A stretch of DNA of 64,000 nt from NCBI GenBank assembly GCA_964513425.1, contig CAZEME010000001.1, forward strand, positions 3,062 to 67,061, written 5' to 3'. The stretch comes from an uncultured Candidatus Saccharimonas sp. GTDB taxonomy: Bacteria; Patescibacteriota; Saccharimonadia; Saccharimonadales; Saccharimonadaceae. The notes beneath the pieces are model-generated. The model did no database searches. It worked only from the letters and a program-made list of their open reading frames with translations, and was not told where the DNA came from. Positions 234-56,440 of the stretch are shown here, one piece after another (the stretch's first letter is position 1; each line of letters begins with the position of its first letter). The translations under genes were made by a program, and so were the position numbers.

Positions 234-806
234 TTATTTATATTTAAGACTATATAAATCTTGAATAGACATACTTTTTCGAAGAAGCTCATCTTCTTCA
301 AGTCGTTCAAACATAAGTTCTCTTGATGTTGACACATTTGGCCAATCATCTGCCCATAAAACACCATCGAATTCTTTGGCTCCTTGTTTGTTGAGAATCC
401 CAGATACAATCTTAAATAATTTTTCAATTCTCTTGAGTGTCGGCTCAGTTAATATTTGGTATGACTTATTATTCAGATAAATCTTATTAATATGAGCAAC
501 TTTTTCGTGCCTAAAATTAATTAAATCTTTATATTCCTTTGATAAAGTATTTTTTATATAATCTGCATCACTTAAGTCAGATATAACCCTGGTTAACCTT
601 AGCGCACCATTCTGACTATCGAATATATAATTAGTAATTAATATTAGTTTAGCTGTCATGCAATCGAGAACAAGTTGAAAAAATGGGTCATATGCACTAT
701 CTATCATGTCTATTTTCTCAAATATTTGTCGGTATGCTTTAATAATTTCGTTTCCTTTTGCAATCTCTTTACAAAAGAATTCCCAATTTTGCTTATCAAT
801 AGTCAT
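234..806 (-). CDS. HEPN-domain protein, AbiU2-like, last gene of the Type I R-M operon
   Basis: 190-aa ORF starting 2 nt after the hsdR stop. It carries an Rx4-6H HEPN signature, FRHEKVAH (R99..H105, nt 492-512). It looks predominantly helical and has a length typical of AbiU2-type HEPN proteins. Confidence 0.55.
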   Translation of the reverse strand: MTIDKQNWEFFCKEIAKGNEIIKAYRQIFEKIDMIDSAYDPFFQLVLDCMTAKLILITNYIFDSQNGALRLTRVISDLSDADYIKNTLSKEYKDLINFRHEKVAHINKIYLNNKSYQILTEPTLKRIEKLFKIVSGILNKQGAKEFDGVLWADDWPNVSTSRELMFERLEEDELLRKSMSIQDLYSLKYK

Positions 807-808
807 TT

Positions 809-3800
809 TTATATCTTTCTACTAGAAATATCAAAAAACTTATTAAAGAATGCTGTTAACTTATCCAAGACTGTTTCTCGTTTCTTGCCTCGGCTTTGAT
901 CAGCTGAAAAACGTGACACAGGTGGCAAAATCTTAGTAATTGCAGTTCCGCTAGTTTGGACTCCTCCATCACGAAACGCACTATCAATAAAGCTATAAGT
1001 CTCATCACGATCAAGATTTTCATCAGCAATAATCTTATTTAATTCCTCAATCTTTTTTGTATCAACAAATGACTGCCAATTATCATCAACGACTGAACCT
1101 ACATCTAATGAATTTATGAATTGCTCAATAAGATCTTTCTTGTTACGAAGTTCAACACTTGAATCTATGGCTTTATTAATATCAACTAACAATTCTTTAT
1201 CCTCTTGATTACCTGCATGATATTTGCGAATTAGTTCAAGAATGTAATCAATATTTATTTCAACTTGTTTGATTAATTCCATTTCAAAGACGATATCATC
1301 ATTAATATTTTCCTTGTCGCTATCTGCAATATCCCTAAACTCATCATAGAAATTAATATACATACTATGATAATCTTGAACATCACGTTCGGATAAAATT
1401 TCTTTTCCAAGAAAATCATCAAATGTAGTCAATATATTTCTAACCTTTAATATTGCACCGTAAAGATTAATGAATTCTTTCTTATTTTGTTCGCCAATAA
1501 TTTGCTCATTTACTGGGAATCGTGAAAGTAATTCGTTCACAAGATCAGTGTATCCACGAATTTGCTTACCTTCAGATTCATAACCCTCATAATATTCTTT
1601 GAAAGATTTCAGCAATACAATACCGCTTGCTTCTTTATCGCCAAATAACGCAATTGAATCATTTGTTGCTTTTTCAAGATTACGGAAAGTCACAATGTTG
1701 CCGAATGTCTTAATAGAATTAAGTATTCGATTTGTACGTGAGTATGCTTGTAATAAACCGTGCATTCGCAAATTCTTATCAACCCATAATGTGTTCAATG
1801 TTGTTGCATCAAAACCAGTCAAAAACATATTAACAACTATCAACAAATCGATCTCGCGATTCTTCATTCGTAATGAAACATCTTTATAGTAATTCTGAAA
1901 TTTATCAGATGATGTATCATAATTCGTAGTAAACATTTTGTTATAGTCTTTCATCGCAGAATCTAGAAAATCTCGCGAACTAGCATCAAGACCATCAGTG
2001 TTCTCAGAATTCTCATCAATTACGCCATCGAGTTCATCATCAACTTCGTTTGCACTATAACTAAAAATTGTTGCTACCTTTAAACGTGCAAGTTCTGGTA
2101 TCTCTGATTGTTGCTTCTTAAACTCTGCATAATATAACTTTGCTACTTCGATTGAACTAACTGCAAATATTGAATTAAAACCACTGAGTCGAATCTTTTC
2201 TTTTACTTCTTCAACAGCCGATCGGTCACGTGCCGAAGCTGCTTCAAATACATTAGCTAGTTTGGTAAATGCGTACGGTTTGCTGTTTCGCTTTGTCTTC
2301 TGATCAAAATGCTCACGAATATACTTAACTACGTTTGATATACGTTCAGGTGCAGCCAGAGCTTTTTCGCGGTCAATATCCCTAACCTGAGAATCATCAA
2401 CATCATCAGCCTCTCTAACAGTACGAACGTAATCGATTCGAAATGGCAAAACATTTTTATCCGTAATGGCATCAACGATAGTATAAGTGTGGAGCTTTTC
2501 ACCGAATGCTTGTTCGGTTGTTTTTATGTCCACTCTTCCGCCGCTAGATGAGTTCTTAGCAAATATCGGTGTACCCGTAAAACCAAATAAATGATAATTC
2601 TTAAAGTTTTTTGTTATTGCATGATGCATATCACCAAATTGTGAACGATGACATTCGTCAAAAATAATTGCTATGTGACTATCAAATGCCTTATGCCCTT
2701 CGTTCGATCGAATGAACTTATCAAGTTTTTGAATAGTGGTAATAATAATTCTAGCGTTTGCATCTTCAAGTTGTCTTTTTAGTTTGGCAGTGCTCGTATT
2801 GCTATTTGCAGCGCCTTTTTCAAACTTGTCATATTCTTTCATTGTTTGATAATCGAGATCTTTGCGATCAACAACAAACAAAACCTTATCTATATAAGAT
2901 AATTTACTAGCAATTTGGGCAGTCTTAAAACTTGTTAATGTCTTACCTGACCCTGTTGTATGCCAAATATAGCCACCAGCATCAATTGTTCCAAGTTTTT
3001 TATAATTTGTTGAGATCTCTATTCGATTTAGTATTCTTTCTGTTGCAACTATTTGATATGGTCGCATTGCGAGTAATAATCGGTCGCTAGTGAATACGCA
3101 ATACTTCGTTAGAATACTTAAAATTGTATGCTTTGCAAAAAATGTCTGCCCAAAATCCATTAGATCAAATATAGGTTTATTGCTTGAATCAGCCCACCAA
3201 CTTGAAAACTCAAAACTATTGCTTGTCTTTTTACTTCGCTTACTGTTATTGTCATTTGATTCTTTGATGTGCTGAAAGCGTGTAGTGTTGCTGTAGTATT
3301 TTGTGTAAGTTCCGTTACTAATTACAAACAACTGAACATATTCGAACAAACCGCTATCTGCCCAAAAACTATCTCGCTGATAACGATTTATCTGGTTAAA
3401 TGCCTCTTGTAGTGCGATGCCTCGTCGTTTCAATTCAACGTGCACAAGTGGTAGACCATTTACTAGAATCGTCACATCATAACGATTAGATCGCAAACCA
3501 TCAATTTCATATTGGTTAATGACTTGAAGACTATTATTATGAATATTCGTTTTATCGATAAGGTAAATATTCTTAACTTCGCCATTATCACGAGTTAGTA
3601 ATTGAACGTGATCTTCTTGTATCTTTGCTGTCTTTTCTTCTATGCCTTCATTTTTGTTAGCTAATTTTGTGACAAAAAATTGTTCCCATTCTATATCACT
3701 GAATTTATAATCATTTAATTTTTCAAGTTGTGTGCGTAAATTTGTAATTAAATCTGATTCGCTTGAAATTGATAAATAATCGTATGCCTGAGATTCAAGT

Positions 3801-3925
3801 AACTTTATAAAAGCTTGTTCTAGATCGGCTTCGCTCTGATAATTAGTCGCTCTAGTTATTGCAGGAGTAAATTCACCCACGACCGTGCTGTTAGTATTTT
3901 CAGCCACCATGCTGTATTTATTCAT
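809..3925 (-). CDS. hsdR: Type I restriction enzyme R subunit
   Basis: 1038 aa. It has the Walker A motif HTTGSGKTLTS, the DEAD/DEAH-type box IIFDECHRSQ and an N-terminal nuclease region. Its start overlaps the hsdS stop by 4 nt. Confidence 0.95.
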   Translation of the reverse strand: MNKYSMVAENTNSTVVGEFTPAITRATNYQSEADLEQAFIKLLESQAYDYLSISSESDLITNLRTQLEKLNDYKFSDIEWEQFFVTKLANKNEGIEEKTAKIQEDHVQLLTRDNGEVKNIYLIDKTNIHNNSLQVINQYEIDGLRSNRYDVTILVNGLPLVHVELKRRGIALQEAFNQINRYQRDSFWADSGLFEYVQLFVISNGTYTKYYSNTTRFQHIKESNDNNSKRSKKTSNSFEFSSWWADSSNKPIFDLMDFGQTFFAKHTILSILTKYCVFTSDRLLLAMRPYQIVATERILNRIEISTNYKKLGTIDAGGYIWHTTGSGKTLTSFKTAQIASKLSYIDKVLFVVDRKDLDYQTMKEYDKFEKGAANSNTSTAKLKRQLEDANARIIITTIQKLDKFIRSNEGHKAFDSHIAIIFDECHRSQFGDMHHAITKNFKNYHLFGFTGTPIFAKNSSSGGRVDIKTTEQAFGEKLHTYTIVDAITDKNVLPFRIDYVRTVREADDVDDSQVRDIDREKALAAPERISNVVKYIREHFDQKTKRNSKPYAFTKLANVFEAASARDRSAVEEVKEKIRLSGFNSIFAVSSIEVAKLYYAEFKKQQSEIPELARLKVATIFSYSANEVDDELDGVIDENSENTDGLDASSRDFLDSAMKDYNKMFTTNYDTSSDKFQNYYKDVSLRMKNREIDLLIVVNMFLTGFDATTLNTLWVDKNLRMHGLLQAYSRTNRILNSIKTFGNIVTFRNLEKATNDSIALFGDKEASGIVLLKSFKEYYEGYESEGKQIRGYTDLVNELLSRFPVNEQIIGEQNKKEFINLYGAILKVRNILTTFDDFLGKEILSERDVQDYHSMYINFYDEFRDIADSDKENINDDIVFEMELIKQVEINIDYILELIRKYHAGNQEDKELLVDINKAIDSSVELRNKKDLIEQFINSLDVGSVVDDNWQSFVDTKKIEELNKIIADENLDRDETYSFIDSAFRDGGVQTSGTAITKILPPVSRFSADQSRGKKRETVLDKLTAFFNKFFDISSRKI

Positions 3926-4515
3926 ACTGATAGCTCCTGGAACGTAAGTAATTTAGTTCGATAGTATTCGTATTGTTGATGACGAGCAGAAATTTCAGCT
4001 GGTAAGCCTTCGGCAATACTATTGATAAGTATTTCAAATTTATCAAGAATATTAACAATACGATTTTGCTCAGAGATAGAAGGAACAGGTATTTTTATTC
4101 TCGCCATATCTTTTGCCGAAACATCGATAACCTTCGTTCCTTTTGCATATTTACGCTTTTCTTTAAAGAACATTAATGTCTGTGTGTAGTATGCAAAATA
4201 TTTTCCAGTAATCTTTTCAGGTTTAAACACAGTTGCATGACCTCCGGTTACGATCTCTCCATCACCACACCATACAACAGCCTTACCAACATCCTCAAGG
4301 TTTTCACTAGTATTAGTGATTATCACATCACCGCTATTCGCCTTTGTGAGTTTTTTTGCTAGTTCTGGCGATACAAATGACTTAGTTTTATTGGTGAATG
4401 TGCCATAATACGTATAAATTTGACCATAATGAATACAAGGGAAACCACTTTCTGTAAAATCTTTTTTCTGCAAACCATTAGCTCTCATAAATACTCCTGT
4501 ATCTCCCAAATTCAA
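3922..4515 (-). CDS. hsdS: Type I R-M specificity subunit, C-terminal half (TRD2 plus distal conserved helix)
   Basis: 197 aa. It begins LNLGDTG (a TRD start motif shared with the upstream half) and ends ISARHQQYEYYRTKLLTF (conserved HsdS helix). The only start is TTG at 4513-4515, overlapping the upstream stop. It is out of frame with the upstream half because of the (AG)10 tract. Confidence 0.85.
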   Translation of the reverse strand: MNLGDTGVFMRANGLQKKDFTESGFPCIHYGQIYTYYGTFTNKTKSFVSPELAKKLTKANSGDVIITNTSENLEDVGKAVVWCGDGEIVTGGHATVFKPEKITGKYFAYYTQTLMFFKEKRKYAKGTKVIDVSAKDMARIKIPVPSISEQNRIVNILDKFEILINSIAEGLPAEISARHQQYEYYRTKLLTFQELSV

Positions 4516-5114
4516 CCATTTAACGTCTCTCTCTCTCTCTCTCTCTGCGAGTCTTGTTGTTCAAACGTCAACAACTGATTTCTATAAAAATCGTATTGCT
4601 TCCTTCTCGCCTCCAGCTCCGCTGACAGCTCCGCTTCTAATTGTGTGAACTTATCGAGAATATTTGCAACCTCTTTTTGAACTTCTAGTGGCGGAATTGG
4701 AATCTGTATACTGCCGATAACTTCCGTTGGTAAGTGTGCCGGTATTGCATCTGTAGCTTGTGATTGAATAAAACCCTGTTTATCTTTTAATACGTAAAAA
4801 AGATATTTATTATCTAAGTTCTCGTTTGGTTTAATGCAGTAACAGACATCATTTGCCCAAAATGCTTCCTTAATATAATTGACGAATCCAGCTGTACCAT
4901 ATTTCACCACAGTAATTGTGTTTGCTGATTGGTTAAACTTACTATAATAACCCATCGGCGTCACGCCACCGCTATATACTGGGTATATACCATCTGACGT
5001 AAGTTCACTTTTCGTGACGCGCCTCCCCCTCTTAATTGAAGCTGTGTCACCGAGATTTAAAAATATTACTCCCTCTGGGCAGGATTTCTGGATCAGCTCA
5101 CCAATCTTGCTCAT
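4512..5114 (-). CDS. hsdS: Type I R-M specificity subunit, N-terminal half (TRD1 plus central conserved helix)
   Basis: 200 aa. It contains FLNLGDTASIKRG at the TRD start and LEARRKQYDFYRNQLLTF as the conserved helix. The C terminus QRERERETLNG-stop is encoded by the dinucleotide repeat. Confidence 0.85.
   Translation of the reverse strand: MSKIGELIQKSCPEGVIFLNLGDTASIKRGRRVTKSELTSDGIYPVYSGGVTPMGYYSKFNQSANTITVVKYGTAGFVNYIKEAFWANDVCYCIKPNENLDNKYLFYVLKDKQGFIQSQATDAIPAHLPTEVIGSIQIPIPPLEVQKEVANILDKFTQLEAELSAELEARRKQYDFYRNQLLTFEQQDSQRERERETLNG
4526..4546. repeat. simple sequence repeat (TC)10T on the + strand, (AG)10 on the coding strand, at the hsdS half-gene junction
   Basis: Read directly as tctctctctctctctctctct at 4526-4546. 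It is the only long dinucleotide tract I noticed in the window. Confidence 0.95.
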
Positions 5115-5569
5115 TACAATTTGATCTTCCCATTGGCAGCTGCGCCAATACCTACAATATTCCCAACTTCTGCCTTAACTAAGCTATCAATAGAAACTTT
5201 TGAAGTAAAGTTAAAATTAAATAATGATTTTATAGCCTTTTGAGGTTCTTCGCCTTGTTCAATTCCTTCTATCACATCTATGCCATTCGCTGTTAAATGC
5301 AAGCCGAGTAACAACAGACCGCCCATAATTTCTTTATTATTCTTTTTTGCGATAAGACCTTTTTCTAGCAAATAATTGAAGGCATTATATAACAAGATAT
5401 CATCTTTACTTATTGAATGCAGGATATCTTTAAGCCACGACTGCGTATCAACTTTCATATTTGATACTGCAGCAAATACTATGCCAGTTTGTCCCAACTT
5501 AGTAGGATCATCTAGCTGTATAACATATAGAGATAAGAGGATTTTGCCAGCTGTTTGCTTTACGCTCAT
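5114..5569 (-). CDS. hypothetical protein embedded between hsdM and hsdS (possible winged-helix fold)
   Basis: 151-aa ORF. Its start overlaps the hsdM stop by 4 nt and its stop overlaps the hsdS start by 1 nt. The segment LYNAFNYLLEKGLIAKK...GLHLTANGIDVIEGIE resembles wHTH recognition-helix and wing regions. I recognise no catalytic motif. Confidence 0.6.
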   Translation of the reverse strand: MSVKQTAGKILLSLYVIQLDDPTKLGQTGIVFAAVSNMKVDTQSWLKDILHSISKDDILLYNAFNYLLEKGLIAKKNNKEIMGGLLLLGLHLTANGIDVIEGIEQGEEPQKAIKSLFNFNFTSKVSIDSLVKAEVGNIVGIGAAANGKIKL

Positions 5570-7137
5570 TTTTTATCCTCTATTTCAGCAACAATCGCAT
5601 CAATCTGAGTACGAAGTTCACTCTGTCTCTTAACAATATTTGCTATGTTTGCATTCAGCTCCGTAATATCAGTGGCGACTGTCATATCAAGCTCGTCAAT
5701 ATAACTACTAACTGCAATATTATAATCATTTTTACTAATTTCATCGTTTGTCACTAATCTAGCAAAATGATCAATGTCTCGACGACTAATAAATGCCTCT
5801 AATATTTTATCTTGATTGACTTGACTGAGCTTATTCTTATTGCCGCCACGAACAAATTCAGCCGATGCATTAATAAATAAAGTTGAGTTGTCTTTTTTGC
5901 TCTTTTTCAAGACTACAATACACGTTGAGATAGTCGTCCCAAAGAATAAGTCAGGCGGTAATTGAATAACTGCATCAACAAAGTTGTTGTCTATTAAGTA
6001 CTTACGAATTTTCGCTTCTGCACCGCCACGATACAGCACTCCAGGGAATTCAACAATTGCAGCAATTCCGCTGGTTGATAACCAACTTAGAATATGCATT
6101 GTAAATGCTAGATCGGCTTTACTCTTTGGGGCTAGTACACCTGCAGGACTGAACCGAGGATCATTTATTAATAATGGATTTGCGTCGCCTTCCCAATTAA
6201 TCGAATATGGTGGATTTGAAACAATTGCATCAAATGGTTCATCGTCCCAATGTTGTGGGTCAATTAATGTATCACCATGAGCTATGTTAAACTTCTCATA
6301 ATTAATGTCATGCAAAAACATATTTATACGTGCAAGGTTGTAGGTTGTTAAGTTAATTTCTTGACCGAAAAATCCTTGACGAACATTATCTTTTCCAAGC
6401 ACTTTAGCAAACTTTAACAGTAAAGATCCTGAGCCACACGCAGGGTCATATACCTTATTAACCTGCGTCTTGCCAACAACTGTAATACGAGCGAGTAATT
6501 CGCTTACTTCTTGTGGGGTAAAGAATTCACCACCAGATTTTCCTGCACTACTGGCATACATACCCATCAAATACTCATACGTATCACCGAAAGCATCAAT
6601 TGTATTGTCTGTGTAATTACCAAGTTTCAAATCACCAATTACGTCCATTAATTTAACAAGTCGCTCGTTACGTTTTGCAACTGTTTGTCCTAGCTTGTTG
6701 CTATTAACATCTAAATCATCAAATAATCCCTTAATATCGTCTTCACTGTCTGCGCCTTTTGCAGAACCTTCAATATTTCGGAATACTCCAGATAAAACTT
6801 CATTCAAATTTTCTTCACTTTTTGCTCGTTTGCGAACATTTTCAAAAAGTTCACTTGGTAATATATAAAAGCCTTTTTCCTTAACGGTATCGTCACGACC
6901 AAATTCTGCAGCATCATCACTAAGGTTTTTATAATCAAAATCTCTAGGTGTGTTTGAATCTTTCAATTCTTCTGAATTGATATAGTTTGTTAGATTTTCC
7001 GAAATGAACCTATAGAATAGTATCCCTAAAACGTATTGTTTAAAATCCCAACCGTCTACAGACCCTCGCAGATCATTTGCAATTTTCCAAATAGTACTGT
7101 GTAGATGCGTACGCTCTTGCTCTTTTTTATTATCCAT
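5566..7137 (-). CDS. hsdM: Type I R-M N6-adenine DNA methyltransferase subunit
   Basis: It has the AdoMet motif VYDPACGSGSLL, the catalytic motif SNPPYS and an N-terminal HsdM_N-like region (IWKIANDLRG). The ORF is open to 7203. ATG at 7137 is preferred because a TATAAT box (7147-7152) lies inside the extension. Confidence 0.93.
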   Translation of the reverse strand: MDNKKEQERTHLHSTIWKIANDLRGSVDGWDFKQYVLGILFYRFISENLTNYINSEELKDSNTPRDFDYKNLSDDAAEFGRDDTVKEKGFYILPSELFENVRKRAKSEENLNEVLSGVFRNIEGSAKGADSEDDIKGLFDDLDVNSNKLGQTVAKRNERLVKLMDVIGDLKLGNYTDNTIDAFGDTYEYLMGMYASSAGKSGGEFFTPQEVSELLARITVVGKTQVNKVYDPACGSGSLLLKFAKVLGKDNVRQGFFGQEINLTTYNLARINMFLHDINYEKFNIAHGDTLIDPQHWDDEPFDAIVSNPPYSINWEGDANPLLINDPRFSPAGVLAPKSKADLAFTMHILSWLSTSGIAAIVEFPGVLYRGGAEAKIRKYLIDNNFVDAVIQLPPDLFFGTTISTCIVVLKKSKKDNSTLFINASAEFVRGGNKNKLSQVNQDKILEAFISRRDIDHFARLVTNDEISKNDYNIAVSSYIDELDMTVATDITELNANIANIVKRQSELRTQIDAIVAEIEDKK

Positions 7138-7225
7138 ATATAAAGTATTATAACCTAAAAATAGGTATAAATCAGCCATGAAATTACTAGACTTTACTGA
7201 CAATTGGCGATAATGTTGTCCTATA

Positions 7226-8488
7226 ATGAAAACAGATTTAACAGATATAAAATATTGCCTGTATGCTCGAAAATCGAGCGAGCAAGATGAACGTCAAGCA
7301 ATGAGCATTGACTCACAAATCAAAGAAATGACCAACATGGCGAACCGTGAGGGGCTACAAGTCACAGAAGTCAAGCAAGAGAGTCATTCGGCCAAACAAT
7401 CTGGGCAAAGGCCTGTCTTTAGCGAATTGCTGACAGATTTACGGAATGATAAATTTCAGGGCATATTAACTTGGGCGCCCGACCGGCTATCACGAAACGC
7501 TGGCGATTTGGGATCATTAGTGGACTTAATGGATTCTAATAAATTACTGCATATTCGAACATTTGGGCAAAGTTTCAGTAATACACCGAATGAAAAGTTT
7601 CTGTTAATGATTTTGTGTTCGCAAGCCAAACTCGAAAACGACAATCGAGGTGTAAATGTAAAACGAGGAATCCGTGCTAAATGTGAAATGGGATGGCGAC
7701 CATGTATGCCTCCGCTTGGATACTTTACTCGAGCTGCAACTGGTGGCGCCCGGGATGTTATTGTTGACGAAGAACGAGCACCATATATTAAAAAGATGTT
7801 CGAGATGTCTGCAAATGGTAAAGGTGGCAGACATATTAAGCAATGGCTAATGGACAATAATGTAAAATCTAGAGGCGGAAAGAATATACCACTTAGTATG
7901 ATTTACAGGATGTTAAATAGTCCATTTTATTATGGCGAGTTTGAATATCCTTCAGGATCGGGCAAATGGTATAAAGGCAATCATCAACCGATAATCGATA
8001 AAGACTTATTCTTGAAAGTCAAAGAACAGTTAAAGGTTCCAATAAAATCTAAATGGGGCTCAAAAGAATTTCCCTTCAGGAACTTTCTGAAATGTTATAG
8101 TTGTGGTGCTTCAATTGTTGGCGAAGAACATACTCGGCATTATGCGAATGGTCGAAATCCTCGATTTGCTTATTATCATTGTTCGCGCCAAGTCGATCAT
8201 GATTGCAAAGAACCATACATATCTGAAAAAGGCATTGTTGAAGAATTGTGTAGCATGCGAAATGAATTAATCACAGATTTACGAGAAGTTGAGCCAGGTT
8301 TGCGTGATGCAATCGAGAAATTTACTAAAATGATTAGTGTTACCGACGAAGATTATAGCAAACAAGAAATGATCGGCGGATATATTAAATACGTATTGCA
8401 TGAAGGGAGTTTGTTTGAGAAAACAAGACTAATTCGAAATATAAATATTAATCTTATGCTGCACAATAAAATACTAATTAAACTATAA
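7226..8488 (+). CDS. large serine recombinase (resolvase/invertase N-domain, recombinase domain and zinc ribbon)
   Basis: 420 aa. The N-terminal YARKSSEQDERQAMSIDSQ is a serine-recombinase catalytic region. GWRPCMPPLGY...ERAPYIKKMF is recombinase-domain-like. The Cys cluster is CYSCGAS...YYHCSRQVDHDC. It is divergent from hsdM. Confidence 0.88.
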   Translation: MKTDLTDIKYCLYARKSSEQDERQAMSIDSQIKEMTNMANREGLQVTEVKQESHSAKQSGQRPVFSELLTDLRNDKFQGILTWAPDRLSRNAGDLGSLVDLMDSNKLLHIRTFGQSFSNTPNEKFLLMILCSQAKLENDNRGVNVKRGIRAKCEMGWRPCMPPLGYFTRAATGGARDVIVDEERAPYIKKMFEMSANGKGGRHIKQWLMDNNVKSRGGKNIPLSMIYRMLNSPFYYGEFEYPSGSGKWYKGNHQPIIDKDLFLKVKEQLKVPIKSKWGSKEFPFRNFLKCYSCGASIVGEEHTRHYANGRNPRFAYYHCSRQVDHDCKEPYISEKGIVEELCSMRNELITDLREVEPGLRDAIEKFTKMISVTDEDYSKQEMIGGYIKYVLHEGSLFEKTRLIRNININLMLHNKILIKL

Positions 8489-8497
8489 TCATATGAT

Positions 8498-9898
8498 ATG
8501 GACAATAATCAAAAAGAAGATAACCAACTTAGCCAAAGAAATATATTAAAAGAATGCTTCACATTATTTGGTAACTCCTATTATGATTCTTTTATCCCTG
8601 GGATAACTGACCTTGTAAAACTTTCCAGGGACCGTCAATATTATAAGAATCCGGCAAAACATTTTGGCCTACAAATAGGGTTAATGGATGCTATTATAAA
8701 GATGGACGAAACCGTTTCCTTAGGCAAACAAGAAGCAAGAAAAAATAACAATAGCGAAGATATAATAATTCAACGAAGACGCAATAGAGTAATTTCATTA
8801 GCATATCGACAAATTTGTGATGGAATTGCTTGGCGCAGTGTTGGCTATTCAAGATTTTATATTCGCATAATGTCTCAGGCACGATCACCTGGATCTGCTC
8901 ATGGAAAAGAAATTGGTCGAAAAAAAGAGATGATTTATGCAACAAATGTCGTACGTAATGGAAGCTATGTTTTAATACACGATGCAACAAATATACTTAG
9001 GGTTGGCGACCTGAGCGCACTAAAAAACATACCTGGAGTACCTTATCTGTCAGAGATAAAAAATAAGAAAGGTATTGCTACACCAAAAGACATAGACGAA
9101 AGATTAGAAAATGGCACATCTACAACTAAACAGGAAGATAGATTATGGCAGGCACAAATAATGCTTAGTTCTAAGAAATGGTATATGAAAGATGTGATTA
9201 TACCTGTTACAAGATTAGTGGCCAAGAAGAAGGATTTCTTAGTAAGTGCCGGCGCTGTCTTGAAACAAGCTGTGAATAAAGGCGTTTACGGAAAAATGTT
9301 AAGCAATTATATGTACATGGAGGCATTTGATATACGTAAAATACTAAATAGTTTTAGTGATACTATATCTTTTCAAAAACTATTAAATACTCTGCCAAGC
9401 CCTCAAAAAGAATTACTTTCAATTCATTCAAACTATGATACCATTGAGGCTCTTTTAGATAATGAGGTGATGCGTTCCGTCCCGCCATACACTATATTCC
9501 CTTTCTCAGCTGAAGTGGTGGCTAAGCTTATTACTGGGCAGCTTGTTTTTAGGACTATGATCTTAAAAAAAGAATTAGAAAATGAATTTCTAAAGTTTGG
9601 CTATGAGTTGATTATTGATGAAAAAGCGCTTGAAGAAGTATCCCAAGACGAAGATAGTGTGGTCTTTTTGTCCAGTAGAGTGCTATTTCCAGATAAAGAT
9701 CCTGACTCGTTTGTGCATATTAGGCACAATAATAGTGGCTTTATGTACCCTATGCAAATGTTCTTTGCTACGATTGCATATGAATTTTTAAGTGTTGAAT
9801 ATATTATTTCGATAGCTGAAGCTGTAAGGGCGACAGCAAAACCAGGCGAAGTAGGAATGTTTTACCCAGAAATAGAAGACAGCTATCGCTGGCTATAA
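8498..9898 (+). CDS. hypothetical protein with a PD-(D/E)xK-like nuclease motif
   Basis: 466-aa ORF starting 9 nt after the recombinase stop. The candidate motif is VLIHD..LRVGD171L-x14-E186-I-K188. I recognise no other family. Confidence 0.55.
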   Translation: MDNNQKEDNQLSQRNILKECFTLFGNSYYDSFIPGITDLVKLSRDRQYYKNPAKHFGLQIGLMDAIIKMDETVSLGKQEARKNNNSEDIIIQRRRNRVISLAYRQICDGIAWRSVGYSRFYIRIMSQARSPGSAHGKEIGRKKEMIYATNVVRNGSYVLIHDATNILRVGDLSALKNIPGVPYLSEIKNKKGIATPKDIDERLENGTSTTKQEDRLWQAQIMLSSKKWYMKDVIIPVTRLVAKKKDFLVSAGAVLKQAVNKGVYGKMLSNYMYMEAFDIRKILNSFSDTISFQKLLNTLPSPQKELLSIHSNYDTIEALLDNEVMRSVPPYTIFPFSAEVVAKLITGQLVFRTMILKKELENEFLKFGYELIIDEKALEEVSQDEDSVVFLSSRVLFPDKDPDSFVHIRHNNSGFMYPMQMFFATIAYEFLSVEYIISIAEAVRATAKPGEVGMFYPEIEDSYRWL

Positions 9899-9972
9899 TA
9901 CATAATATTAATCATGGATTGATTAGCTATGAAAACGTATTATTGAATTTTCTTATGAACTACAAGAAAAAA

Positions 9973-9994
9973 CCGACCCAAAAGGTCGGTTTTT
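9973..9994. terminator. intrinsic terminator hairpin
   Basis: ccgacc-caaaa-ggtcgg followed by ttttt and preceded by an A-run. It lies between the 466-aa ORF and tRNA-Gln. Confidence 0.6.
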
Positions 9995-10066
9995 CTACTT
10001 CCTAGCGTTATGTCCAATAGATTACAAATGTATATTACAACATAAGGTCTTGTTTGATACAATGCT

Positions 10067-10141
10067 TGGCTGGGGATGAGGGATTCGAACCCCCGAATGC
10101 CAGGACCAGAACCTGGTGCCTTACCGCTTGGCCAATCCCCA
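10067..10141 (-). tRNA. tRNA-Gln (anticodon CUG), CCA encoded
   Basis: The reverse complement folds as a cloverleaf. The acceptor is UGGGGAU/AUCCCCA, the anticodon loop is UU-CUG-GU and the T-loop is GGGGGUUCGAAUCCCUC. It is very similar to the E. coli tRNA-Gln scaffold. Confidence 0.93.
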
Positions 10142-12276: not shown

Positions 12277-13041
12277 ATGAGTAAAAAAATATCTATCAAG
12301 TGGTTACGTAATATTAACTTAATTGCCGCTGGGTTACACCTAGCTCAGGCTATAACTGTATTAATCTTAAGCAAGACTTTTAACTTGCAGATAACTGGTA
12401 ATTATCTCGCTTTTAATCCAGCCACCCAGAGCCTAGAACCAGTTACAAAATATCTATTTGATCTGTCTTTGCCGATGTTGATTGCTATCTTCCTATTTAT
12501 CTGTGCTACTGCCCATCTTATTATTGGCACAGTTTATAACAAAAAATATAATGCCGACCTTAAACTTGGTATGAACCGAGCTCGTTGGATTGAATATTCC
12601 ATGTCGGCTAGCGTGATGATGTTAGCTATTGCCCTACTGGTCGGTTTGACTGACCTAATGGGACTATTCATGCTATTCATTCTGAGTGGAGTTATGAATC
12701 TAATGGGCCTAGTAATGGAGGTTCATAACCAGACTACTAAAAAGACTAATTGGCTAAGTTATTGGATTGGTTGTCTAGCCGGTATCGTACCTTGGATAGT
12801 AGTAGCTTTCTATATGTGGCTCGGTGCTGATAATGGAGCTAAGGCACCAAACTTTGTTTATTGGATCTATGTCTCTATCTTTATATTCTTCAACTGTTTT
12901 GCTGTTAATATGATTTTGCAATACAAAAAGATTGGTCCTTGGAAAGATTATCTATTCGGTGAAAGAGTTTATATTATCTTGAGCCTAGTAGCCAAATCAC
13001 TACTAGCTTGGCAGGTTTTTGCTGGCACACTTCGTCCTTAA
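12277..13041 (+). CDS. heliorhodopsin
   Basis: 254 aa with 7 TM segments. Blocks align to heliorhodopsin 48C12: RWIEYSMSASVM, YWIGCLAGIVPW and GERVYIILSLVAKSLLAWQVFAGTL. The Schiff-base Lys (K240), counterion Glu (E106), H21 and H80 are present. Confidence 0.85.
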   Translation: MSKKISIKWLRNINLIAAGLHLAQAITVLILSKTFNLQITGNYLAFNPATQSLEPVTKYLFDLSLPMLIAIFLFICATAHLIIGTVYNKKYNADLKLGMNRARWIEYSMSASVMMLAIALLVGLTDLMGLFMLFILSGVMNLMGLVMEVHNQTTKKTNWLSYWIGCLAGIVPWIVVAFYMWLGADNGAKAPNFVYWIYVSIFIFFNCFAVNMILQYKKIGPWKDYLFGERVYIILSLVAKSLLAWQVFAGTLRP

Positions 13042-56017: not shown

Positions 56018-56038
56018 TATTTATCTCCTTTTATTATC

Positions 56039-56440
56039 TTAATAAACTTTTAGTAATAATTCACCGCCAAGGCGTTGTTTTGTGGCCATATAGCCCGTCA
56101 TAACACCCTTACTGGTACTAACTAGTACTATCCCACGACCATTTTTAATTTTTGGTATTTCATCAGCCCCAACGTAAACCCTTCGACCTGGTTTAGATAG
56201 GCGAGTAATTTCAGTTATATTAGGATTCTCACCTGGTTGATTGATGGTAATAAGTAGAACATCTCTAGGTTTAGAACTTTCTACCTTAACTTCACTTAGA
56301 TATTTAGCTTTTTTTAATTCATTAGCAATAGTCAACTTCAGTTTAGAAGAAGGTATTCGAATTTCATTTTTGCCAACCATACTAGCATTGCGAATGCGGG
56401 TCAATAAGTCAGCAATTGGATCATTAGATTGTAGTGTCAT
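56039..56440 (-). CDS. rpsH: 30S ribosomal protein S8
   Basis: 133 aa with the DPIADLLTRIRNA motif. Confidence 0.95.
   Translation of the reverse strand: MTLQSNDPIADLLTRIRNASMVGKNEIRIPSSKLKLTIANELKKAKYLSEVKVESSKPRDVLLITINQPGENPNITEITRLSKPGRRVYVGADEIPKIKNGRGIVLVSTSKGVMTGYMATKQRLGGELLLKVY

Follow-up and report, generated by a model that had tools for sequence, protein, structure and literature searches.

Restriction-endonuclease-like enzymes of the PD-(D/E)xK type, among them the HSDR_N domain of HsdR and the Type II enzymes, begin one strand with an invariant acidic residue and carry (E/D)-x-K in the next strand, 12-15 residues further on, together with a conserved acidic residue on the preceding helix, a Q on the following helix and an alpha-beta-beta-beta-alpha-beta order of elements. 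Families of this type are known to escape both fold and profile searches. Shedu (SduA, DUF4263) is a stand-alone protein of ~400-470 amino acids (aa) whose N-terminal part varies and whose core is putatively of PD-(D/E)xK type, found in defence or mobile islands with no methyltransferase partner, and Type IV enzymes such as Mrr are likewise solitary nuclease genes that lack a cognate methyltransferase. Free-standing homing genes of the seg/mob type are also single nuclease genes, with their own promoter and placed in short spacers between conserved genes; they encode GIY-YIG or HNH enzymes of ~200-250 aa and are phage-borne. LdgA and DdgA, obtained by functional metagenomics, are antiphage genes restricted to Patescibacteria and have no recognisable homology, and LdgA acts as a single gene in a non-abortive manner (PMC12366544). 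Here we consider a gene that resembles these systems in several respects. It is the second of two neighbouring open reading frames (ORFs) in 64,000 nucleotides (nt) from an uncultured Candidatus Saccharimonas sp. (contig CAZEME010000001.1, positions 3,062 to 67,061), a stretch called the window throughout. ORF1 is a large serine recombinase (LSR) and ORF2 encodes a protein that an original prediction, made from the letters of the window, had described as an orphan with a PD-(D/E)xK-like motif. In our reading, which rests on sequence conservation and a structural model, ORF2 would be a stand-alone metal-dependent endonuclease of the PD-(D/E)xK type, carried as autonomous cargo and engaged in conflict between its host or island and foreign DNA. 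We give this a probability of roughly one half.

The orphan status of ORF2 in curated libraries was borne out, as neither Pfam, PADLOC or NCBIfam nor a search of PDB sequences gave a match, and all family members named in public sources are called "hypothetical protein". The family itself is large. A word-indexed protein search returned 18 relatives only, and its repetition with a 75-member alignment (A2) added one protein, while an exhaustive profile search, counted as representative clusters at 50% identity, gave 957 with E<=1e-3, of which 482 reached <=1e-10. With few exceptions the members are ~420-480 aa long, and they were matched over full length. Conservation was read from A2, whose 75 diverse members reach down to 17% identity. 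The residue numbering given in the original prediction was correct: VLIHD ends at D162, and RVG-D171-L is followed after 14 residues by E186-I-K188. Across the alignment D108, D171, K188 and P330 are invariant (75/75 each), and position 186 is acidic in every member, being E in 72 and D in three, so that the motif residues proposed earlier are kept in the whole set. D162 (72/75) and Q212 (74/75) belong, with T164, R168, Q59, G109, R113, R119, P335 and G347, to the positions conserved in at least 90%. The spacing from D171 to ExK is mostly 12-15 residues in the family, and the full pattern runs as a hydrophobic strand, (N/H)D-x-T-N-x-L-R-x-G-D, a hydrophobic strand, a further hydrophobic strand with E-x-K, and a helix opened by K-Q. 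Because they are conserved among homologues as distant as these, the D...(E/D)xK residues are, at the level of the alignment, family-defining and not a product of chance, and no other feature of the family is better conserved.

The family was found mostly in Patescibacteria, and also in Actinomycetota, Chloroflexota, Acidobacteriota, Desulfobacterota, Nitrospirota and Bacillota. Members come from Saccharibacteria, many Microgenomates lineages, Falkowbacteria, Thermincola, Thermodesulfovibrionales, Syntrophales, Acidobacteriota, Chloroflexota and the linear plasmids of Streptomyces, the last being linked to the family with an hhalign probability of 99.9%. The closest relatives of ORF1 and of ORF2 both originate from metagenome-assembled genomes of Saccharibacteria. 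Only three of 72,556 plasmids carried a member, all of them Streptomyces linear plasmids and two of them typed MOBF, and one query against INPHARED phages and three subgroup alignments against IMG/VR recovered none. The only viral link was phrog_14906, a phage family of unknown function, matched by 14 of the 75 members with a best E of 7.4e-09. On these counts a core gene of phages or plasmids was rejected; near absence from plasmids and from the phage and viral collections is what is expected of a cellular or island-borne gene, and the distribution is that of a chromosomal, island-borne accessory gene. Two of the plasmids, pSV2 (L015 in our numbering of loci; NC_004934.1, 7851-9925) and L016, carry a full-length member of 459 aa. 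On pSV2 it is convergent with the gene of a TIGR02391-family protein, with a 4-nt overlap, and genes for a GIY-YIG protein, an endonuclease VII and a DEAD-box helicase are close by.

A first AlphaFold model of ORF2, made with 17 sequences, had a predicted local distance difference test score (pLDDT) of 80 and showed the motif segment as low-confidence coil. The second model, made with the 75-sequence alignment, reached a pLDDT of 92.7 and a predicted template modelling score (pTM) of 0.93. It predicts a bundle of long helices over roughly the first 125 residues, with the DGIAWR motif at its end, followed by a central core and a C-terminal domain of ~170 aa, both of alpha/beta type. The core consists of helix 138-153, strands 157-160, 172-175, 183-188 and 192-194, helices 196-204 and 211-225, and strand 227-230. 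D171 is placed directly before strand 172-175, E186 and K188 on strand 183-188, and Q212 on helix 211-225. As in the PD-(D/E)xK enzymes, a helix ahead of the motif bears one more conserved acidic residue. The succession is alpha-beta-beta-beta-alpha-beta as in the PD-(D/E)xK core, a likeness in the order of elements only. To this extent the model agrees with the nuclease core proposed in the original prediction; a structural neighbour, of PD-(D/E)xK or other type, was not returned from PDB by Foldseek.

Several results weigh against the nuclease reading. Foldseek searches of PDB with both models gave no significant neighbour (best E 1.1 and 1.9; query-normalised template modelling score <=0.17), nor did a search of viral models (best E 0.39), and the nuclease fold of ORF2 is therefore structurally unconfirmed. 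Pfam over the 75 members gave no consistent match; 40 unrelated families were hit by one member each at E<=0.1, one of them being NOV_C (0.023), and phrog_93 "endonuclease" was weakly matched by two of the 75. Alignment with the nuclease domain of the HsdR encoded in the window, as a single sequence and then as a 121-sequence profile, had a probability of 1-2% in hhalign, and a genuine Mrr_cat protein from L004 gave nothing; the trials taken together (single HsdR, single Mrr_cat, 121-sequence HsdR_N profile) lie at 0.4-2%. PADLOC models (PADLOC-DB v2.0.0, Shedu included) matched none of the 75 members. Further, no neighbouring gene is universal across the family loci, and the richness of these neighbourhoods in defence and mobile genes is a qualitative observation. 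The sole hhalign alignment with HsdR, at the 1-2% probability given above, puts D150...E163-L-K165 of HsdR exactly onto D171...E186-x-K188 of ORF2, and the local likeness can be seen by setting DVTILVNGL-PLVHVELKRRG of HsdR beside DLSALKNIPGVPYLSEIKNKKG of ORF2. For the overall modelled architecture a solved relative is not detectable with the methods used.

The same observations could mean that ORF2 is no nuclease, and is instead a new-fold enzyme or binding protein in which the D...ExK pattern serves other chemistry. A very confident model with no PDB neighbour of any kind would suit such a protein, as would the lack of a significant profile link to nuclease families and the conserved residues outside the motif (Q59, D108-G-x-A-W-R113, R119, P330, P335 and G347). 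Against it, PD-(D/E)xK enzymes are closely matched in the form of the motif, its spacing, the Q at the helix start and the succession of elements, and we regard a non-nuclease as unlikely. A restriction-endonuclease-like active site is probably the best explanation for the pattern of conservation in alignment and model, with membership of the fold plausible but unproven.

Compared with the described members of the PD-(D/E)xK group, ORF2 differs in having no significant profile or Foldseek similarity to any of them and in a core that is predicted to lie between an N-terminal bundle of ~125 aa and the C-terminal domain, neither with known relatives. No model of Pfam, NCBIfam or PADLOC covers its TNxLRxGD loop or the helix motif DGIAWR. 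A Shedu-like affiliation, which the original prediction had named for checking, did not hold, since neither PADLOC Shedu nor Pfam DUF4263 matched any of the 75 members, and with no PADLOC match for ORF2 itself its identity as a known defence system was rejected. A methylation-dependent, Type IV-like role, also proposed there, is pure conjecture: in Pfam scans of ORF2 and the 75 members no domain that reads modifications was detected, be it Mrr_cat, SRA, EVE/YTH or another. A novel reader of modified bases could conceivably reside in the N- or C-terminal domain. Unlike seg/mob homing genes, the family is ~460 aa in size, was not found in the viral collections and resides mostly in variable islands. 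LdgA and DdgA are described as having no homologues outside Patescibacteria (PMC12366544), whereas the ORF2 family occurs outside as well; the two are set apart by description only. Its way of life is like that of defence nucleases encoded by one gene, Shedu for example. As judged from sequence, the family could not be assigned to Shedu, to the other PADLOC systems, to the Mrr-type enzymes or to any Pfam PDDEXK family, and what appears to be new is a family that combines a restriction-endonuclease-like signature with novel predicted flanking domains.

ORF1 had been called a large serine recombinase, which is confirmed. By its sequence it has a Resolvase domain with the serine nucleophile (Pfam 3.5e-21), a Recombinase domain (8.4e-16) and a zinc ribbon (Zn_ribbon_recom, 8e-06), all three above cut-offs, and it matches the phrog_95 integrase at 1.3e-64; R15 and S17 are invariant across the recombinase alignments. 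Recombinases of this short type (~415-420 aa) are very common, with at least 586 relatives from reference genomes and no fewer than 589 from metagenomes, nearly all in Patescibacteria, and our locus counts rest on the 80 best loci from either set (47-85% identity). A tRNA gene often lies convergent 110-360 nt downstream, most often Gln and also Ser, Asn, Glu, Lys, Trp or Leu; tRNA-Gln is the commonest among those convergent and within 400 nt. In the 104 recombinase loci with at least 3 kb of downstream sequence, a tRNA was within 400 nt of the recombinase in 20, and one or two ORFs (~115-830 aa, either strand) stood between recombinase and tRNA in 36. Unrelated singletons made up 44 of the 46 ORFs in this slot.

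The closest tRNA-bearing relatives, L054 (71% recombinase identity) and L056 (69%), have an empty slot with recombinase, terminator and tRNA-Gln only. In both, the recombinase stop is followed by ~50 nt (52 nt in L054), a hairpin AAAAACCGACC...GGTCGGTTTTT, ~72 nt and the 3' end of tRNA-Gln. The junction at this 3' end reads ...GCAATGCT/TGGCTGGGG in both loci and is the same in the window; the recombinase C-terminus (...KILIKL, then stop) ends at an equal position in all three, hairpin and spacing are alike, and in the window ORF2 sits between recombinase stop and hairpin. In L053, which has the closest recombinase (85%), another gene of 185 aa occupies the slot. Because empty and otherwise filled slots exist beside the same recombinase type, this tRNA-proximal end of the island is a hypervariable slot for cargo, in which ORF2 is the one gene present, in agreement with the earlier view of ORF2 as integrase-adjacent cargo.

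The relation between the two genes was looked at from both sides, with subgroup alignments, as A2 and a 10-sequence recombinase alignment were too diverse for locus finding. Of the 39 non-redundant loci with a family member, 16, all from Patescibacteria, have a serine recombinase, whole or as a remnant, within 7.4 kb, at distances from 13 nt to 7.4 kb and in both orientations; members outside Patescibacteria had no recombinase nearby. Seen from the recombinase, a family member was found within 4-10 kb in 0 of 80 reference-genome loci and 0 of 80 metagenome loci, and as a positive control the same hidden Markov model recovered every known family member. A co-occurrence of 0/160 means that ORF2 is not a partner of the recombinase and is one of many things such islands carry; it is very probably cargo independent of ORF1. 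Several recombinase genes near family members have a 3' end that adjoins or overlaps a tRNA gene.

Comparison of loci shows in addition that the gene can stand by itself. L005 has the same recombinase-ORF2 pair as the window (75% and 79% identity, respectively). It shares with L010 a block of 1,674 bp (L005 9868-11541, L010 3194-4867) at 96% identity in otherwise unrelated flanks. The block comprises the final 34 codons of the recombinase, then ORF2 and the spacer, and stops no more than 5 nt (TGGCT) into the 3' end of tRNA-Gln. In L010, where the block runs into tRNA-Gln, the recombinase is reduced to these 34 codons and ORF2 is intact. The sequence past TGGCT differs in L005, which may be an excised form or another integration site. 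In L007 a 57%-identical homologue stands by itself in the ribosomal spc operon, between rpsH and rplF, as an insertion of ~1.6 kb (L007 1675-3325) at a spacer that measures 21 nt in the window (56020-56042). A 10-bp direct repeat GGGAGATTTT occurs on both flanks of the insertion (L007 1715 and 3245; by our own estimate a chance of ~1-2%), and a terminator-like hairpin precedes the gene.

In the window, the 9-nt gap between the two genes and their coordinates and strand are as originally predicted. A TATAAT box at 8484-8489 overlaps the recombinase stop codon 8 nt ahead of the ORF2 ATG, and no Shine-Dalgarno sequence was found ahead of this ATG. Boxes of this -10 type, 6-9 nt ahead of the ATG and with no Shine-Dalgarno sequence, are present in the window, L005/L010, L007, L011 and L001, and absent where a gene for an XRE helix-turn-helix (HTH) protein precedes the homologue (L004, L006). 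As far as the sequence tells, the box may act as a promoter. The predicted terminator (9973-9994) is real and somewhat longer, a hairpin with a 13-bp stem, AAAAAACCGACC-CAAAA-GGTCGGTTTTT, which the scan called on the minus strand; positioned between ORF2 and the convergent tRNA-Gln gene, it is able to serve both. Co-transcription of the two genes, as had been claimed, is possible because no terminator separates them and they end at a common one. In its obligatory form the claim is doubtful, since ORF2 has its own -10-like box, kept in L010 beside the recombinase remnant, and co-transcription is probably not required. This remnant, the lone insertion in L007 and the box suggest that ORF2 is a self-sufficient unit.

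Such autonomy could also be that of a selfish homing-type nuclease, which would cut empty intergenic sites and have its gene copied in by recombinational repair, the target sites being the recombinase-terminator spacer beside tRNA-Gln and the rpsH-rplF spacer. This would explain a bare single gene inside conserved operons, as in L007 with its solitary insertion. The exact placement in the window between recombinase stop and terminator, by comparison with L054 and L056, points the same way, as do the absence of room for transposon ends and the nuclease-type signature of ORF2, and the L005/L010 block in unrelated flanks is the pattern expected of co-conversion. However, a protein of ~460 aa is far larger than known PD-(D/E)xK homing enzymes, most members are in variable islands and not at one conserved site, and a direct repeat as in L007 is not what homing leaves behind. 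Between the occupied and empty alleles that could be compared, divergence is too great (69-71% recombinase identity) for a recent gain to be seen. Many unrelated genes are found in the slot beside the recombinase, so that no particular mobility has to be assumed. We consider homing to be rather improbable, and chances are slightly poorer still for its widest version, in which ORF2 would be the first example of a homing-type nuclease gene that propagates itself and has a new fold, spreading as a bare cassette of ~1.5 kb into conserved-operon spacers of ultra-small bacteria of the Candidate Phyla Radiation (CPR) and their islands, such as those of the ribosomal spc operon and the 3' untranslated region of the integrase beside tRNA-Gln. 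An intron-borne gene was rejected as a separate candidate; around ORF2 and the L007 insertion Rfam gave no match except tRNA, hence no intron or intein RNA.

The genes that recur near family members suggest a different role, that of a toxin or abortive-infection effector which stabilises the island as an addiction module, is held in check by an XRE HTH protein or by tight regulation, and kills or arrests cells that lose the island or become infected. XRE HTH genes of 75-84 aa form the most recurrent neighbour cluster (seven loci), followed in our clustering by serine recombinases only, and they stand directly upstream and co-oriented in L004, L006, L044 and L029. PADLOC "control protein" models match these neighbours, genes for HEPN, SocA_Panacea and AbiJ proteins occur nearby, and ORF2 persists after recombinase decay in L010. 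Nevertheless, such an HTH gene or other small partner is missing in the window, L005, L007 and L010, XRE regulators precede ordinary restriction genes too, and neither ORF2 (Pfam, PADLOC) nor the 75 members (PADLOC) match a known toxin family. We hold a toxin to be a poor prospect. With only the XRE HTH and recombinase clusters to show for it, a conserved multi-gene system was rejected as well.

MOB_C relaxases have been reported to be restriction-endonuclease-like, and ORF2 could accordingly be a DNA-processing protein of a mobilisable or conjugative element, forming with the recombinase a minimal integrative mobilisable element. Homologues lie directly upstream of a TrwB/TraG-like coupling ATPase of ~840 aa in L003 and L006, perhaps in L044, and the L003 and L006 elements carry Replic_Relax, RadC and serine recombinase genes besides. 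Yet these two elements already encode a Replic_Relax protein, transfer genes are absent at most loci, and the family is nearly absent from plasmids, with two of the three that carry a member already typed MOBF, which makes this role highly improbable. Finally, a recombinase accessory or directionality factor controlling excision and integration, another suggestion of the original prediction, is close to refuted: the genes are adjacent, co-oriented and co-inherited in the window and L005, 16 of the 39 loci have a serine recombinase at hand and the directionality factors of serine integrases are diverse and some of them enzyme-like, but the 0/160 count, the variable distance and orientation, the members outside Patescibacteria that have no recombinase and the intact genes in L010 and L007 all stand against it.

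To return to the stand-alone nuclease, the course of events we propose is as follows. ORF2 would have been inserted between the serine integrase of the island and that integrase's own terminator. It would be expressed from its own near-leaderless promoter, by read-through from the recombinase, or both, and in other genomes a small XRE-type regulator precedes the homologue. The product would be a divalent-metal-dependent DNA endonuclease, acting with neither a cognate methyltransferase nor the recombinase, and its targets in the conflict would be incoming DNA of a phage, a plasmid or a rival island. What the analysis shows is the anatomy of the genes, the size of the family, the conservation of its residues, the predicted succession of secondary-structure elements, the independence of ORF2 from the recombinase and its place in the cargo slot. 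We infer nuclease chemistry, DNA as the substrate and a role in defence or conflict; the last is read from context and is the more tentative part.

That context is, as the original prediction had expected, one of mobile-element and defence families. The immediate neighbours are a Type I restriction-modification (R-M) system and an AbiU2-like ORF in the window, an AAA_15/21 ATPase in L005, SocA_Panacea in L001, Mrr_cat in L004, HEPN_Cthe2314 in L013, Schlafen AlbA_2 in L011 and L023, HNH in L012, AbiJ with a reverse transcriptase-protease in L044, RadC in L006 and L047, the coupling ATPase with Replic_Relax in L003 and L006, and the TIGR02391-family protein on pSV2. PADLOC matches among neighbours were DarG, AriA, AbiLi and mad3/mad8. 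In L044 (313-3353) the homologue stands beside an AbiJ_NTD3 protein of 472 aa and a fusion of reverse transcriptase and trypsin-like protease of 536 aa. L003 (4199-9134) and L006 (1492-11254) are small elements in Saccharibacteria resembling integrative conjugative or mobilisable elements, with the order (RadC), XRE HTH, ORF2 homologue, the DUF8128/TrwB/TraG-like coupling ATPase, Replic_Relax and a serine recombinase at a tRNA gene. In Microgenomates (L019 3837-7810, L022 116-4097, L024 6549-11425, L018 8811-11425) the homologue follows tightly packed genes on the same strand, of ~382 aa and ~254 aa and with no Pfam annotation; the arrangement may be a conserved operon or reflect the relatedness of three genomes.

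Longer serine recombinases of 500-580 aa, whose 3' ends overlap or abut a tRNA gene (Glu, Asp or Gln), were seen at L006 9542-11288, L011 13163-14772, L013/L014 1466-3109, L035 3275-4828 and L029 7808-8914. L029 has an additional partial copy of tRNA-Gln, 38 nt long and ~100 nt upstream of the intact gene, possibly the scar of an earlier integration.

The features of the locus are collected in Table 1. The original prediction had stated that no methyltransferase lies next to ORF2, which is not correct for the island as a whole: a complete Type I R-M operon, of which hsdM is the first gene, begins 22 nt upstream of the recombinase on the opposite strand. It is a self-contained system, and nothing was found to suggest a partnership with ORF2. 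Its hsdS is split into two adjacent one-domain genes (197 and 200 aa, 4-nt overlap) instead of a single two-domain gene. The tRNA-Gln gene is the probable integration target of the island. Neither attachment (att) repeats nor a displaced tRNA fragment marking the island limits were found, as is expected for serine integrases, and no GC shift marks the island in the window. A heliorhodopsin gene (12277-13041, plus strand, Pfam 4.9e-96) lies 2 kb past tRNA-Gln and adjoins a Mur-ligase-like gene and a DNA-alkylation-repair gene.

Table 1. Features of the ORF2 locus, in window positions.
Feature	Position	Strand	Description
Large serine recombinase (ORF1)	7226..8488	+	420 aa; integrase of tRNA-Gln-associated genomic island
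ORF2	8498..9898	+	466 aa; large unnamed family with PD-(D/E)xK-like signature; single-gene cargo
Promoter-like site	8460..8489	+	TGCACA, 18 nt, TATAAT; from consensus scan; putative
ORF2 codons 157-188	8966..9061	+	VLIH strand, D162, TNxLRVG-D171, strand, YLS-E186-I-K188 strand; putative catalytic hairpin
Hairpin terminator	9967..9995	.	Common to ORF2 and convergent tRNA-Gln
Island-end spacer	9996..10066	.	Likely att region, up to junction ...CAATGCT/TGGCTGGGG at tRNA 3' end
tRNA-Gln (CTG)	10067..10141	-	ARAGORN; Rfam tRNA 60.3 bits; probable integration target
Other island cargo	234..7203	-	Divergent from recombinase; Type I R-M operon and weak AbiU2-like ORF
hsdM	5566-7203	-	Pfam N6_Mtase 6.5e-111
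151-aa ORF between hsdM and hsdS	5114-5569	-	No annotation
Half-size hsdS genes	4512-5114 and 3922-4515	-	Pfam Methylase_S in both
hsdR	809-3925	-	Pfam HSDR_N/SWI2_SNF2/EcoR124_C
AbiU2-like HEPN ORF	234-806	-	Weak; HEPN_AbiU2 5.4e-4, under Pfam cut-off

Many orphan nuclease-like genes exist in genomic islands. Here a family of ~1000 clusters, unnamed in curated libraries, has a very confident model with no solved neighbour and a strictly conserved signature of nuclease type, and rides in the integrase-bounded islands of Patescibacteria. The work also defines a very widespread family of short serine integrases beside tRNA genes with a hypervariable slot for one or two cargo genes, and this slot between recombinase and tRNA is a useful place to mine for more unknown accessory genes. 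The genomes of Patescibacteria are tiny. Very few defence systems have been recognised in them (PMC12366544). Should ORF2 indeed be a nuclease that acts alone, the restriction-endonuclease-like enzymes would gain a new family, and ORF2 would be a concrete candidate for how Patescibacteria and their islands fight foreign DNA.

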